From an uncultured Candidatus Saccharibacteria bacterium (GTDB lineage: Bacteria; Patescibacteriota; Minisyncoccia; Phycocordibacterales; Zambryskibacteraceae), in contig CAYGCY010000002.1 of NCBI GenBank assembly GCA_964348525.1, forward strand, positions 9,726-73,725: a stretch of DNA of 64,000 nt, written 5' to 3'. Every line of letters starts with the position of its first letter. Within the stretch, counting starts at the first letter, position 1. Positions 3,493 through 50,897 of this stretch are shown here, one piece after another. Position numbers and translations under genes: made by a program. Below the pieces are notes generated by a model that saw only the letters and a program-made list of their open reading frames with translations, had not been told where the DNA came from and did no database searches.

Positions 3493-3936
3493 ATGAGAAT
3501 TATCCTTTTGAAAGACGTCCCCAAGGTGGGAAGAAAATTTGAGGTAAAAGAAGTATCTGATGGATATGCAAATAATTTGTTATTTCCTAGAGGTTTAGCA
3601 GAAATGGCGACTCCACAAGCCCTGGTAAAACTACATAAAGAAATTGAGGCGAGCGTTGAATCAAAAAAAATTGAACTAGATCTTCTTCATAAAAATTTTA
3701 ATACACTAAAAAATACAGAAGTAAAACTTATTAAGCCAGCTAATGAAGAAGGGCATCTTTTTGCAGGAGTAAAAGAAATTGAAATAAAAAATGCTATTGA
3801 AACACAATTAGGAATTACTCTGCCAAAAGATTTTATAGATTTGGAACATCCATTAAAAACTGTGGGGGAACATTCAGTAAACATTAAATCGGGAAATATA
3901 AAAGGAACAATAAAAATAATTATTGAAACCGAATAA
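3493..3936 (+). CDS. rplI: Ribosomal protein L9
   Basis: MRIILLKDVPKVGRKFEVKEVSDGYANNLLFPRGLA, a typical L9 N-terminus. Confidence 0.9.
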   Translation: MRIILLKDVPKVGRKFEVKEVSDGYANNLLFPRGLAEMATPQALVKLHKEIEASVESKKIELDLLHKNFNTLKNTEVKLIKPANEEGHLFAGVKEIEIKNAIETQLGITLPKDFIDLEHPLKTVGEHSVNIKSGNIKGTIKIIIETE

Positions 3937-3941
3937 CAAAG

Positions 3942-3970
3942 CCGGCGCACCCCCGTTCAGGGCGCGCCGG
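3942..3970. terminator. GC-rich hairpin between rplI and a small convergent ORF
   Basis: ccggcgc...gcgccgg 7-bp stem with a 15-nt loop. Weak T-run. Confidence 0.4.
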
Positions 3971-3989
3971 TAAATTTGAGCCTCTAGTG

Positions 3990-4226
3990 CTACCCATGTT
4001 TTTCAACGTGAGAATCGTAGAGTTCTCGTTTGATACGTGCATGACAGCGCGGGCACTCTGTGCAACATGGCGCTACGTGTATGACCTCTTGGGAGCCAAC
4101 ATGACAGGCACAGTTGCAGAGTTCGTCATTTGTGACGACCAGTGCATGGTTTATGTGCCCACATGCATAGCATGTAAACGATGTGCCCAAATCACGTCCG
4201 CACCTCTCACAGCGATTGTGCAACAT
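3990..4226 (-). CDS. Small Cys-rich zinc-ribbon-like protein (GC-rich cassette). Start chosen at the internal ATG with a GGAGGG SD.
   Basis: Four CxxC-type pairs (CERCGRD, CYACGH, CNCACH, CCTECPRCH). SD GGAGGG 7 nt upstream of ATG at 4224-4226. The region is about 50% GC against an AT-rich backbone. An antisense 87-aa ORF on the plus strand is the alternative. Confidence 0.4.
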   Translation of the reverse strand: MLHNRCERCGRDLGTSFTCYACGHINHALVVTNDELCNCACHVGSQEVIHVAPCCTECPRCHARIKRELYDSHVEKHG

Positions 4227-10427: not shown

Positions 10428-11201
10428 GGGCCACTCCTTACTAGGGTAGGTGATAATGATGCTTCTCCGGCGAATATATTATTTATTTTATTGCTTAAAG
10501 CAAGGAATTTTTCTACGCCCACTTAATTGTCTAGTTTAATTTAATGGAAAATAAATTTAGTAAAGCTTTGTTTATCGGCCTTTATTTTATAGGGGGATAG
10601 GGCTTTCTTAGGTTAGATTAAGGTCGCACAATATATCTTTTAGACCTACACCATCTATACAAAAGGGCCAAAGGACTCCCCCATAGCTTTTATTAAAAAA
10701 ACAGGCACTCCGGTATTTAAATTTAGAATTAATTTTATTTGTCAAAAATATTTTTAATATTATTCCCCACGTTTATACTTCACTAAAAATAATAAAACAA
10801 AAAATAATCTCTATTTTTATCTATCTTCTTTAGAGTCCATTCTGTCTGAACCCCTTTGGGGTCTTTATGAGCCCTAAAAGGCCTTAAAGAGGTATATGAC
10901 CCTATGCCAGGATGGGCCAAAGAATGCTCTTTGGAGCTTTTTAAGGAATTCTTCGTTGAGTCAATATTCTTCTACCCTTCTGGAACTTTTTATTTTTTAA
11001 AGCCTGTTTTGCATTGTTGGTAACAAACACAAAGCGAGCTTTGGACATTGAATTGTTTTTGTTTTTATTTATTGCCATATCTTTATTTTACCCATCTAAG
11101 AGCCCTTCCCACCATGAGCCTGTGTTATTAAGTATTAGGTACATCGAGCCGTAAAACGGCAAAAGGATGAAAAATAAAATTTTCTTGTGCATATACTTAC
11201 A

Positions 11202-31448: not shown

Positions 31449-33254
31449 TTATTCAAGCACTGCTTTTATCCTGCGAATACCTTGCGCCACAGCTTCTTCT
31501 TTCTGGATTTTAAATGTGCCCAAATCTCCTGTATTTGCGACATGAGGTCCACCACAGAATTCTTTTGAAAATGCATGCTCTAAATCACTGCCAATAAAAT
31601 AAACAGAAACCTCGTCTCCATATTTTTCGCTAAACAGATGCCGTGCCCCAATCTTCATCGCCTCTTCTTTTGGCAAAATAATATTCTGGACGGGCAACTT
31701 TTCAGCAATTTTCTCATTCACAATGTTCTCCACTTTTTGCTTTTCCTCCTCTGTCATTTTTTGTGAATGGGCAAAATCAAAGCGCAACCTTTCTGGAGTG
31801 ATATTTGAACCCTTCTGTCCAACATGCTCTCCTAGCACCCTTTTTAAGGCTTCGTGAAGCAAGTGTGTGGCCGTGTGGTATTTGGTCTCCATTTCGCCGT
31901 GGCCTGCAAGCCCACCTTTAAACTTTTGTTCCGCCCCCGCGCGAGACAGTTCTTGATGGGCTTTAAATTTCTCCTGAAACTCTTTTTCATTTATTTCTCT
32001 TCCATTTTCTTTTGCTAGCTCTTTTGTAAGTTCAAAAGGAAACCCGTAGGAAGTAAATAAAACGAAAGGGTCTTCTCCCTTTTCAAAATGCTTGAGACCG
32101 GCTTCGAGGGTTTCTTTAAATTTATTTATCTCCTCAGTTATGACTTGTTTTATTAAATTCGCGTCAAAATCATAGTGATTTTTATAAATGACATGACCAA
32201 TAACAATTTCAGCAACAATAACTAGTTCTGACAAATCTGCTTTTATTTTCTTTGTATGAATGTATGCCCTACGAAGTAAGCGCCGTAAAATGTAGCCTCT
32301 GTCTGTATTTGATGGCACAACCCCATCATTTATCATAAATACCGCGGTACGTATGTGGTCAACGATAATTCTTGAAGAACGACCCGCCTTAGAATCGAAC
32401 TCCCGCAATGGCAATAGTAGTGGCGCAAAAATGTCTGTGTCATATGCGGTTTTCTTGCCCTGCATCACAGAGGTTAACCTTTCAAGCCCAGCCCCCGTAT
32501 CAACATTTTTATTAGCTAGTTTTCCAATAACTTTCCCATCTTTTTTCTCATATTCCATAAAAACATCATTCCAAATTTCTACAACAGTCTCATCCTTTAC
32601 TGCTTTCAAAAATTCTTCTTTAGATAAATTTCCCAGCCCATTTTCTGTAAGGTCATAAAACATTTCTGTATCTGGGCCACACGGGCCATCGTCTCCCGCA
32701 CTCCAAAAATTATCTTCGGCTCCCAAAAAATAAATTCTATTTTCTGCAATACCATTTTTCATCCAAATGCCCGCTGATTCAGTATCTTTTGGCGCATTTT
32801 CATCGCCCTCAAAACAAGTTATATAGAGCCTGTTTAAATCTAAACCAAAACCTTCTTCTTTTGAGGTTAAAAGCTCAACGCTCCACTTAATAGCATCCTC
32901 TTTAAAATAATCTCCAAGAGACCAATTGCCGAGCATTTCAAAAAAGGTTAGGTGCCTATTGTCGCCAACATCATCAATGTCTCCGGTGCGAATACATTTT
33001 TGAATATCAACCAACCTTTTTCCTTTTGGGTGCTCCTTGCCCAAAAGATATGGAATGAGGGGTTGCATCCCTGCACTATTAAAAAGCGTTTTCTGTGTAG
33101 CAGAAACTTCACTCGGTATAAGAGAAGCGGATGGGATTTCGATATGTCCCCTTTTAACAAAAAAATCTATGAATCTGCGCCTTATTTCTGCTGACTCCAT
33201 AGCAAAAATATAACATATTAGCGCTTTAAAACGAGCCTTGTTTGCACCATTCAC
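31449..33254 (-). CDS. alaS: Alanyl-tRNA synthetase, short form (catalytic + editing domains, no C-Ala domain)
   Basis: Class II AlaRS core. Editing-domain HxxxH (HTATHLLHEALKRVLG). 601 aa against about 870. Confidence 0.85.
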   Translation of the reverse strand: MNGANKARFKALICYIFAMESAEIRRRFIDFFVKRGHIEIPSASLIPSEVSATQKTLFNSAGMQPLIPYLLGKEHPKGKRLVDIQKCIRTGDIDDVGDNRHLTFFEMLGNWSLGDYFKEDAIKWSVELLTSKEEGFGLDLNRLYITCFEGDENAPKDTESAGIWMKNGIAENRIYFLGAEDNFWSAGDDGPCGPDTEMFYDLTENGLGNLSKEEFLKAVKDETVVEIWNDVFMEYEKKDGKVIGKLANKNVDTGAGLERLTSVMQGKKTAYDTDIFAPLLLPLREFDSKAGRSSRIIVDHIRTAVFMINDGVVPSNTDRGYILRRLLRRAYIHTKKIKADLSELVIVAEIVIGHVIYKNHYDFDANLIKQVITEEINKFKETLEAGLKHFEKGEDPFVLFTSYGFPFELTKELAKENGREINEKEFQEKFKAHQELSRAGAEQKFKGGLAGHGEMETKYHTATHLLHEALKRVLGEHVGQKGSNITPERLRFDFAHSQKMTEEEKQKVENIVNEKIAEKLPVQNIILPKEEAMKIGARHLFSEKYGDEVSVYFIGSDLEHAFSKEFCGGPHVANTGDLGTFKIQKEEAVAQGIRRIKAVLE

Positions 33255-47316: not shown

Positions 47317-47402
47317 TGGTGGGTAGGAGAGGATTCGAACCTCTGTAGGCTCACGCCAACTGATTTACAGTCAGTCCCCTTTAACCGCTCGGGCACCTAC
47401 CC
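47317..47402 (-). tRNA. tRNA-Tyr (GTA), type II with long variable arm, CCA encoded
   Basis: GGGTAGGTGCCCGAGCGGTTAAAGGGGACTGACTGTAAATCAGT...GGTTCGAATCCTCTCCTACCCACCA. Perfect 7-bp acceptor stem. Starts 5 nt after the tyrS stop. Confidence 0.85.
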
Positions 47403-50406: not shown

Positions 50407-50446
50407 ACAAAAAACCGTTCACTAGCTAGTGAACGGTTTTTTGTAT
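50407..50446 (+). terminator. Perfect hairpin terminator
   Basis: aaaaaaccgttcactagctagtgaacggtttttt. Confidence 0.8.
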
Positions 50447-50447
50447 T

Positions 50448-50518
50448 GTGGACCTATCGGGAATCGCACCCGAGCTTCGTCAATGCGAATGACGCGTCGT
50501 GCTACTAGACTATAGGCC
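50448..50518 (-). tRNA. tRNA-Ala-like (anticodon CGC), non-canonical D- and T-loops
   Basis: Cloverleaf with G3:U70, A73, anticodon loop UUCGCAU. 3-bp D-stem without G18/G19. T-loop UGCGAUU (G at position 55). Confidence 0.45.
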
Positions 50519-50530
50519 CATTTCTCTTCG

Positions 50531-50601
50531 GTGGACTCACGGGGAATCGGACCCCGACCTCATCCATGCCATGGATGCGTAATACCATTTTACTATGAGC
50601 C
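50531..50601 (-). tRNA. tRNA-Ala (GGC)
   Basis: G3:U70, A73, anticodon loop AUGGCAU. D-loop has GG. T-loop UCCGAUU. Confidence 0.55.
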
Positions 50602-50673
50602 CGTCGTACTGGTATTTTACGGAAAATAACCACAGCTTCAAATAAGATTATTTTTAGGATAAGATGTTGTCTT

Positions 50674-50821
50674 CGGACCTTTAGCTTAGTTGTAGCGTCT
50701 CGTGAAAAGCAACCAGCTGTAGGGTTTCGTAAAATGTTGCTCATGCACGGGCCTTGGCTTAGTTGTAGCGTCTCGTGAAAAGCAACTGACTTCAGAGTTT
50801 TGTAAAATATTGTTCGTGTAC
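50674..50821 (+). repeat. Two tandem about 74-nt degenerate tRNA-like units sharing the 5' 28 nt of the downstream tRNA-Ala
   Basis: Units at 50674-50747 and 50748-50821 begin GG(A/G)CCTT(T)(A/G)GCTTAGTTGTAGCGTCTCGTG like the tRNA-Ala 5' half, but do not fold into a cloverleaf. Confidence 0.4.
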
Positions 50822-50897
50822 GGGCCCTTAGCTTAGCTGGTAGAGCGCCTCATTTGCAATGAGGAGGTCAGCGGTTCGAATCCGCTAGGGTCCACCA
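50822..50897 (+). tRNA. tRNA-Ala (TGC), CCA encoded
   Basis: GGGCCCTTAGCTTAGCTGGTAGAGCGCCTCATTTGCAATGAGGAGGTCAGCGGTTCGAATCCGCTAGGGTCCACCA. G3:U70, A73. Confidence 0.85.

Follow-up and report, generated by a model that had tools for sequence, protein, structure and literature searches.

Free-standing GIY-YIG homing endonuclease genes lie beside tRNA genes, as SegB does in phage T4, and the tyrT locus of Escherichia coli carries repeats of ~178 bp that lie 3′ of the transfer RNA (tRNA) and carry its 3′ end. The rtT product is released during processing of the tyrT transcript (bioRxiv 10.1101/2024.07.17.603846). Partial copies of tRNAs are known to be mis-annotated, either as tRNA genes or as pseudogenes (PMC9897764), and the canonical elbow nucleotides are a near-universal feature of tRNAs and not a strict criterion of membership (PMC7912444). 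The staphylococcal non-proteinogenic (NP) tRNA-Gly species have UGC in place of UUC at T-loop positions 54-56, lack G18/G19 and bind EF-Tu weakly because of the T-stem pairs A49-U65, U50-A64 and A51-U63 (PMC7826273, PMC4574755); the calculated binding free energy is -9.5 kcal/mol against a class mean of -10.8, and chimeras were measured at -9.6 and -9.7 kcal/mol (PMC3239215). NP tRNAs have so far been detected only in Staphylococcus aureus and Staphylococcus epidermidis (PMC7826273). Here we describe a divergent cluster of three genuine tRNA-Ala genes lying between a SWIB-domain gene and ddl in a 64-kb stretch of a Patescibacteria (Minisyncoccia) chromosome. This whole stretch is called the window, and counts of open reading frames (ORFs), tRNAs and codons refer to it unless another sequence is named. 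Two of the three genes have an unusual elbow, and the third is preceded by two tandem units that copy its 5′ end.

The picture that we favour, with some reservation, is one of genuine decoder tRNAs with variant elbows, next to units that are scars of duplication or insertion. It concerns the following features (nt, nucleotides):

50448-50519, minus strand: tRNA-Ala(CGC), called by ARAGORN, Rfam RF00005 score 54.5 bits, CCA not encoded
50530-50602, minus strand: tRNA-Ala(GGC), called by ARAGORN, Rfam RF00005 score 58.8 bits
50675-50748, plus strand: tandem unit 1, 74 nt, from Tandem Repeats Finder, the repeat search and alignment with the tRNA
50749-50821, plus strand: tandem unit 2, 73 nt, of the same architecture and abutting G1 of the intact tRNA, from Tandem Repeats Finder, the repeat search and alignment
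50822-50897, plus strand: tRNA-Ala(TGC), canonical, CCA encoded, called by ARAGORN, Rfam RF00005 score 71.4 bits

ARAGORN called four tRNA genes in the window, namely the three tRNA-Ala genes, all inside 450 bp, and a tRNA-Tyr at 47317-47402, and the three tRNA-Ala genes score above the RF00005 gathering score of 29 bits. Each of them carries the alanine identity elements G3:U70 and A73, by sequence reading and in the Rfam alignments, and their pairwise identity is only 67-71% (blastn). An earlier account made from the letters of the window, the sequence-only reading, had proposed three such genes within 450 bp, and both programs agree with it; the gene that it called 'CGC-like' is a minus-strand tRNA-Ala as it said, but with a plain CGC anticodon.

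The elbow was examined at nucleotides G18, G19, U55 and C56. The canonical T-loop UUCGAAU is found in tRNA-Ala(TGC), which has 4/4 of these nucleotides, and in the tRNA-Tyr. The Rfam alignments show that tRNA-Ala(GGC) deviates through C55, in the T-loop UCCGAUU, and that its D-loop, AAUGGUA, is normal with G18/G19 kept. In tRNA-Ala(CGC), the T-loop UGCGAUU brings G55, the D-loop AGUAGCA has an A in the G18 column and a G in the G19 column, and positions 13 and 22 form a U13/C22 mismatch. The unusual minus-strand T-loops described by the sequence-only reading are thus real, while its statement that one copy lacks G18/G19 is right for the GG doublet, which is absent from tRNA-Ala(CGC), but probably not for G19, which appears to be retained.

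Most likely, the GGC and CGC genes are not pseudogenes but encode functional decoders whose elbow is alternative or relaxed. We take them for decoders because the features that bear on charging and EF-Tu binding are otherwise normal, and because their anticodons are not carried by the canonical TGC gene. For EF-Tu affinity we used the T-stem model in which Schrader and Uhlenbeck add up the contributions of pairs 49:65, 50:64 and 51:63 (PMC3239215, Table 2; reference -10.1 kcal/mol). It predicts a free energy (ΔG) of -10.1 kcal/mol for both the TGC and the GGC tRNA, compared to a bacterial class mean of -10.0, and of -10.5 kcal/mol for the CGC tRNA (-10.3 for its counterpart in the related contig L036), compared to a class mean of -10.3. 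As the class standard deviation of these model-calculated values is ~0.5 kcal/mol, none of the three is a predicted weak EF-Tu binder. Codon use points the same way: GCC and GCT make up 47% and GCG 18% of the Ala codons (1105 codons, 46 window ORFs), so that GGC and CGC decoders would be useful, and no second GGC or CGC gene was called by ARAGORN in the 64-kb window.

Conservation was followed in ddl/SWIB loci (L-numbers) fetched from the close relatives reachable through Ddl and the flavodoxin-like protein; a genome-contig search with Ddl returned one close relative. A neighbour-joining tree of Ddl places L011 as basal to two groups, (L010,(L037,L013/L040)) and ((window,L036),(L005,(L008,L016))). 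In L036, the sister of the window, which is a 3.8-kb contig with the CGC gene only, tRNA-Ala(CGC) is 96% identical to that of the window and lies 6 nt past the ddl stop codon. G55 and the AGUAGCA D-loop are the same in both, one variable-loop base differs, and at pair 49:65 the window has U-A where L036 has C-G. Since the elbow is unchanged and the change in the T-stem is compensatory, the CGC tRNA appears to be under selection for structure, as a pseudogene would not be. Throughout 335 kb of related sequence, T-arms lacking U55 occur only in the window and L036.

Both T-arms are found in other RNAs. The T-arm 15-mer of the GGC tRNA (C55) is present in at least 38 ARAGORN-called tRNAs of many isotypes on viral contigs, mostly with GG intact. 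The T-arm 18-mer of the CGC tRNA, CUCGGGUGCGAUUCCCGA (G55), is the T-arm of alphaproteobacterial permuted transfer-messenger RNAs (tmRNAs), so that some tmRNA tRNA-like domains also have G55, and it occurs in a phage tRNA-Met that has no GG in its D-loop. On the IMG/VR contigs L017-L032 (e.g., L018 4284-4680), a T-arm identical to that of the CGC tRNA was seen in permuted (two-piece) tmRNA genes, whose tags are of the alphaproteobacterial type (ANDNFAP...ALAA). A tmRNA or a T-box at the locus itself was considered and is unsupported by ARAGORN and Rfam, which detected no tmRNA there at the gathering score.

The GGC and CGC genes would form a small operon with a promoter-like site of its own and a shared bidirectional terminator, and a weaker promoter-like site precedes the tandem units:

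50614-50641, minus strand: promoter-like TTGAAG-16-TAAAAT, 11 nt upstream of tRNA-Ala(GGC), from the promoter scan as a consensus match only
50407-50444, no strand assigned: perfect 19+19 palindrome (38 nt) with A-run and T-run flanks, 100% complementary in the repeat search and with 17 pairs on the minus strand in the terminator scan
50637-50665, plus strand: weaker promoter-like TTCAAA-17-TAAGAT, 9 nt upstream of unit 1, read from the sequence

The TTGAAG-16-TAAAAT site would drive the GGC-CGC pair. The palindrome, which lies between the SWIB gene and the CGC tRNA, is likely a bidirectional intrinsic terminator, serving the SWIB gene on the plus strand and the CGC/GGC pair on the minus strand. 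At 50636-50642, the -35-like hexamers TTCAAA (plus strand) and TTGAAG (minus strand) overlap almost completely, and the two divergent tRNA transcription units may compete there for RNA polymerase.

Two observations weigh against the decoding role of the pair. tRNA-Ala(GGC) was found by blastn in no other relative locus, and the status of the two odd genes as apparently sole copies of their anticodons rests on the 64 kb in view. Nevertheless, the other readings of the pair fare worse. The sequence-only reading had suggested that the minus-strand tRNAs are decaying duplicates, and it is true that the near-universal positions U55 and G18 are altered and that the covariance scores of 54.5 and 58.8 bits compare with 71.4 bits for the TGC gene; however, these are good tRNA scores, the alanine identity elements and all of the stems are intact save for the one 13:22 mismatch, a promoter-like site and a terminator are present, and the CGC gene is conserved with its compensatory T-stem change, all of which makes pseudogenes very improbable. 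It is quite doubtful that the pair was acquired horizontally from a phage or another mobile element and entered the interval from the SWIB terminator to the promoter of tRNA-Ala(TGC). Such an origin would fit the absence of the pair from this place in all of the relatives whose SWIB-tRNA-Ala junction was seen (L005, L008, L010, L011, L016, L040 and L253), the different context of the CGC gene in L036, the occurrence of C55 and G55 T-arms on viral contigs and the low identity among the three genes. On the other hand, there is no close phage homologue, a blastn search against 50,697 phage records giving two partial matches at E ~1e-3; a 20-mer of the GGC gene has 0 matches on viral contigs; mobile-element genes are not adjacent to the pair; and the CGC gene, which the sister genomes share, has therefore been in place for a while.

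A third possibility, that the pair donates alanine outside translation, to peptidoglycan cross-bridges or in lipid alanylation, as staphylococcal tRNA-Gly serves Fem transferases, seems improbable to us. The CGC tRNA, having UGC for UUC and no GG doublet, does show the hallmarks of S. aureus NP tRNA-Gly (PMC7826273, PMC4574755), and the surroundings are suggestive, with the pair ~0.7-0.8 kb from ddl, the CGC gene directly behind ddl in L036, and murG, ftsW, mraY and a D-Ala-D-Ala carboxypeptidase gene also in the window. However, the GGC tRNA keeps both G18 and G19, and the predicted EF-Tu affinities of the pair (-10.1 and -10.5) are normal, the staphylococcal tRNAs being ~1.3 kcal/mol weaker. 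Moreover, the GGC and CGC anticodons are without a canonical duplicate in view, GCC, GCU and GCG codons are common, and no FemAB, MurM or MprF domain and no aminoacyl-phosphatidylglycerol (PG) synthase domain was found by Pfam in 52 window ORFs (51 of the 55 ORFs of at least 150 amino acids and one small ORF). It was the EF-Tu T-stem calculation and the Pfam domain scan that led us to give up a cell-wall tRNA as the preferred explanation.

We now turn to the tandem units upstream of tRNA-Ala(TGC). Tandem Repeats Finder reported a period of 73, 2.2 copies, 81% matches and a score of 221 over 50674-50836, the repeat search found two 73-nt copies with 84% identity, and the window contains just two exact copies of the 25-mer GTTGTAGCGTCTCGTGAAAAGCAAC, against an expectation of 0 from shuffles. 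The units are a tandem segmental duplication, head-to-tail, with a constant period and beyond chance. ARAGORN called no tRNA in them, RF00005 did not match at E<=10, and nothing credible was found by Rfam over the units at that threshold. Nucleotides 1-18 of the units are 78-89% identical to the acceptor strand and D-arm of tRNA-Ala(TGC), and the similarity is marginal from about nt 19 to 43 (52-58%, compared to 45+-6% for shuffles). The core of nt 1-39 ends in ...GCAAC, and its nt 19-39, TAGCGTYTCGTGAAANCAAC, are not tRNA sequence. Over their last 35 nt, the units are similar to the spacer that precedes unit 1 (TAAAAT/TAAGAT, then GTTG...). Judged from the sequence, the simplest description of the units is a tandem duplication of a segment from ~-35 to ~+38 of the tRNA-Ala(TGC) gene. 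Most of what the sequence-only reading had said of them is borne out: two tandem units of about 74 nt precede the TGC gene (74 and 73 nt), they are no cloverleaves, and they are partial duplications of the 5′ region of the gene. Its statement that they copy the first ~28 nt and then diverge is solid for nt 1-18 but marginal beyond.

The same reading had offered tRNA-derived regulatory RNAs as an explanation, and a structured RNA of this kind has so far found no support. RNAalifold gave no consensus structure for the units (-0.75 kcal/mol, 0 compensatory pairs), the z-scores of the single-unit folds run from -1.2 to +1.4 and those of single units and whole leaders together from -2.3 to +1.4, with -0.48 for the whole leader of the window, and RNAduplex found core-tRNA complementarity no better than for shuffles. 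The reading of the units as a structured RNA was set aside on these grounds, the near-zero z-scores, the missing consensus structure and the ordinary pairing with the tRNA. The units were also considered as internal promoters, since TAAAAT lies 13 nt before each following copy; this was rejected, as there is no acceptable -35 and no counterpart in L011. Searches for unit copies elsewhere gave three viral-contig and two JGI metagenome-contig matches, all due to chance and inside coding sequences.

In the related genomes, whose comparison at this locus the sequence-only reading had called for, the units are patchily distributed. Two of them stand at the corresponding place in the basal lineage L011, where TTGCTT-N18-TATAAT lies upstream, but the units are absent in seven related lineages in which the 5′ flank of tRNA-Ala(TGC) was seen (L008/9, L010, L016, L037, L040, L251 and L253), and L005 has only a broken fragment in their place. 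Between the window and L011, the first 38-39 nt of the units, including TAGCGTYTCGTGAAANCAAC, are 82-85% identical, compared to 42-50% for the remaining 35 nt, which is the level of shuffles (47.8+-3.9); between the two units inside each genome, the identity is 92% in the 5′ part and 69-72% in the 3′ part. As the 5′ 38-39 nt are conserved while the 3′ 35 nt are randomised, the 39-nt core evolves under some constraint or comes from a conserved source. The units keep T16, like the tRNAs of all the relatives, and the tRNA of the window has C16.

Further changes were seen around tRNA-Ala(TGC) in the relatives. A canonical gene, 93-96% identical to that of the window (blastn), lies beside SWIB, ddl or both in nine relative lineages. 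In L011 it is flanked by DUF4153 and NUDIX genes. In L005, nt 1-19 of the tRNA lie next to the promoter, interrupted by a double hairpin of 44 nt, and the intact tRNA follows 18 nt later. A spacing of 9 nt between the -10 hexamer and G1 is seen at unit 1, at the fragment of L005 and at the intact tRNAs of L016 and L037; in the tRNA-Ala promoters of these relatives the hexamer is TAAAAT. In L251, a more distant relative, two GIY-YIG ORFs lie in series upstream of tRNA-Ala(TGC) (3548-4221, minus strand). Read in the orientation of the tRNA, a fragment of nt 1-11 is followed by an inverted repeat, an 86-amino-acid GIY-YIG ORF and the matching inverted repeat (CCCCTCACATGA / TCATGTGAGGGG), and then by a fragment of nt 1-~30, itself split by a palindrome, an 81-amino-acid GIY-YIG ORF that stops within the tRNA, with nt 13-15 as its stop codon, and the intact tRNA. 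One of the two ORFs has a weak match to a group I intron endonuclease family, and the arrangement looks like an intron-less insertion of a homing endonuclease gene at a tRNA. This series indicates that small endonuclease genes can sit between the promoter and tRNA-Ala(TGC), each with a duplicated 5′ end.

Several smaller observations belong to these loci. L008 (2094-10202) and L009, of the same species, have an island of ~8.5 kb between ddl and tRNA-Ala(TGC), with a 1015-amino-acid KAP-family NTPase, zinc-ribbon proteins and a 508-amino-acid large serine recombinase whose 3′ end overlaps that of the tRNA; it is probably an integrative element with tRNA-Ala(TGC) as its attachment site. Relative to ddl, tRNA-Ala(TGC) has the opposite orientation in L005 (11109-11182), L016 (6789-6864) and L037 (4348-4375) to that in the window, L008, L010 and L011. 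The double hairpin of L005 lies at 11038-11081 (TCCCGAC...GTCGGGA, twice) and the palindrome of L251 at ~3878-3913 (36 nt, GC-rich, CCCGCCCGA...TCGGGCGGG); both of these GC-rich palindromic mini-insertions sit within vestigial tRNA 5′ fragments and not in intact genes. In L253, a tRNA-Val(CAC) lies divergently upstream of tRNA-Ala(TGC), placed like the GGC/CGC pair of the window. Taken at the level of sequence comparison, the locus is a rearrangement hotspot, as the sequence-only reading had supposed for insertions, given the 5′ fragments in L005, L011 and L251, the L008/L009 island, the GIY-YIG genes of L251 and the flipped orientation.

Most probably, repeated duplication or insertion at the 5′ end of tRNA-Ala(TGC) has left the units behind as scars. 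We read them as products of a recurrent process because 5′-end duplication of the same type recurs in the relatives, once bracketing GIY-YIG genes. The segment duplicated in tandem would comprise ~35 nt of upstream spacer and approximately the first 30-38 nt of the tRNA. Unit 1 would mark the ancestral start of the tRNA relative to the promoter, the intact gene lying downstream of the added material, which suggests that an insertion or duplication within the old gene brought in new material and, with it, a fresh 5′ end. Placed between the tRNA and the promoter-like site, the units probably make up a long 5′ leader. They would be co-transcribed as ~150 nt of leader from that site, and a cut by RNase P at G1 would remove the leader. 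We infer this transcription through the units and do not take it as given, because the plus-strand site is weak and was not reported by the promoter scan. A copy of GGGCC in the leader can pair with the 3′ acceptor strand of the tRNA in the predicted minimum-energy fold of the precursor.

The plus-strand TTCAAA-17-TAAGAT matches at 8/12 positions only and falls under the threshold of the scan. Some of the evidence does not sit easily with scars. Across the clade's deepest split, nucleotides 19-39 of the units, TAGCGTYTCGTGAAANCAAC, retain ~90% identity and the remainder of the unit is randomised, a contrast that pure scars do not account for. Neither in the window nor in L011 do the units have an endonuclease or integrase gene nearby, and the unit core was not found elsewhere in the viral and metagenome contig scans. 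The conserved core implies some constraint, and this opens the way to another explanation, which we consider unlikely but worth weighing, namely that the ~39 nt (the first 18 nt of the tRNA and TAGCGTYTCGTGAAANCAAC) are a functional element whose two copies selection would maintain. Candidates are a DNA site bound by a protein, an element of the leader that controls maturation or expression of tRNA-Ala, and the recognition or homology arm of an ORF-less derivative of an endonuclease cassette. Such an element would account for the 82-85% identity of the 5′ part between the window and the basal L011 beside a 3′ part at shuffle level, for the exactly two copies with a 73-74-nt period in both genomes, and for T16 in units next to a tRNA with C16, which means that the adjacent gene is not simply overwriting them. 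It is at odds with the failure of RNAalifold to find a consensus, with the fold z-scores and the lack of special tRNA complementarity, with the patchy distribution, the units being missing in seven lineages and broken in L005, and with the absence of further copies in the contig scans. A doubtful, more specific version is that the 5′ duplications are the footprint of homing, in which GIY-YIG cassettes insert between promoter and tRNA with a replacement 5′ end, the window units being ORF-less, still-constrained derivatives. Conserved tRNA sequence would then serve as both homology arms, the cassette would ride on the tRNA promoter, and the 39-nt core would be an arm plus a recognition sequence. 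A GIY-YIG ORF does lie between 5′ fragment and tRNA in L251, but not in the window or L011, where 35 nt separate the copies, and the link of the window units to endonuclease cassettes is hypothetical. Insertion at an attachment site was likewise checked: the units abut each other and the tRNA with 35-nt spacers only, and the window has no integrase or recombinase ORF close to them.

The genes around the cluster are ordinary housekeeping genes, encoding tyrosyl-tRNA synthetase, a flavodoxin-like reductase, the 85-amino-acid SWIB-domain protein, Ddl, UvrC and UvrA. Farther off in the window lie murG, ftsW, mraY, the D-Ala-D-Ala carboxypeptidase gene, several aminoacyl-tRNA synthetase genes and ribosomal genes. 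Those Ddl homologues whose records give a source are assigned to Minisyncoccia, Paceibacterota or Patescibacteria, which places the window on the chromosome of a Candidate Phyla Radiation (CPR) bacterium. The alanyl-tRNA synthetase ORF (31449-33254, minus strand) has only 601 amino acids, with the catalytic domain and a second additional domain, and ends at residue 601; it looks shorter than a typical bacterial alanyl-tRNA synthetase. Two Logan short-read contigs (L001 and L004, from ERR3094302) encode SWIB and Ddl proteins identical to those of the window and end at ~50436 and ~50867, that is, at the terminator palindrome and inside tRNA-Ala(TGC), so that the tRNA/repeat region between them is unassembled in the contigs of ERR3094302.

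If the GGC and CGC genes really decode, they would be natural bacterial elongator tRNAs without U55/pseudouridine 55 (Psi55), one of them also without G18, in a lineage with a reduced, atypical translation apparatus. They would then bear on the degree to which the canonical elbow is required by the ribosome, RNase P, TruB and EF-Tu, and could be templates for engineered orthogonal tRNAs. The 5′-end duplications mark tRNA-Ala(TGC) as a hotspot of recombination and insertion in Minisyncoccia, and the conserved 39-nt core is the one piece of the locus that could hide a function. There is also a practical warning, since short-read assemblies break at the tRNA/repeat region, as the Logan contigs did.

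Set beside the described systems, the minus-strand pair resembles the staphylococcal NP tRNA-Gly (NP1-3, donors for FmhB, FemA and FemB) in being extra isoacceptors in a peptidoglycan-walled cell, and the CGC tRNA shares their UGC T-loop, in which no Psi55 is possible. The likeness is partial: the CGC tRNA has both UGC and the loss of GG (AG instead), whereas the GGC tRNA has UCC and keeps GG, the T-stems of the window tRNAs predict normal EF-Tu binding, their anticodons are unique among the tRNAs in view, and no Fem-type gene is among the 52 window ORFs scanned. The alphaproteobacterial permuted tmRNA has an alanine-accepting tRNA-like domain with the same T-arm, CUCGGGUGCGAUUCCCGA, as the CGC tRNA and no canonical D-loop partner, whereas the CGC gene of the window is a complete cloverleaf with a CGC anticodon arm.

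The units are like tRNA fragments at attachment sites in that a partial copy lies beside an intact gene, at a locus that takes islands in relatives (PMC9897764; L008/L009), but they are copies of the 5′ end, lie upstream, are in tandem with a 73-nt period, have no element or integrase between them, and have a core conserved between distant genomes. With tyrT/rtT they share tandem repeats that include a piece of the tRNA and are, in the window by inference, co-transcribed with it; in contrast, the repeats of the window are 73 nt long, are placed on the 5′ side of the tRNA and contain its 5′ end. The likeness to the GIY-YIG genes of the T4 SegB type lies in the ORFs of L251, the window and L011 being without an endonuclease ORF. 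In summary, the set found in the window comprises variant-elbow tRNAs and tRNA gene fragments, both of kinds that are already known.

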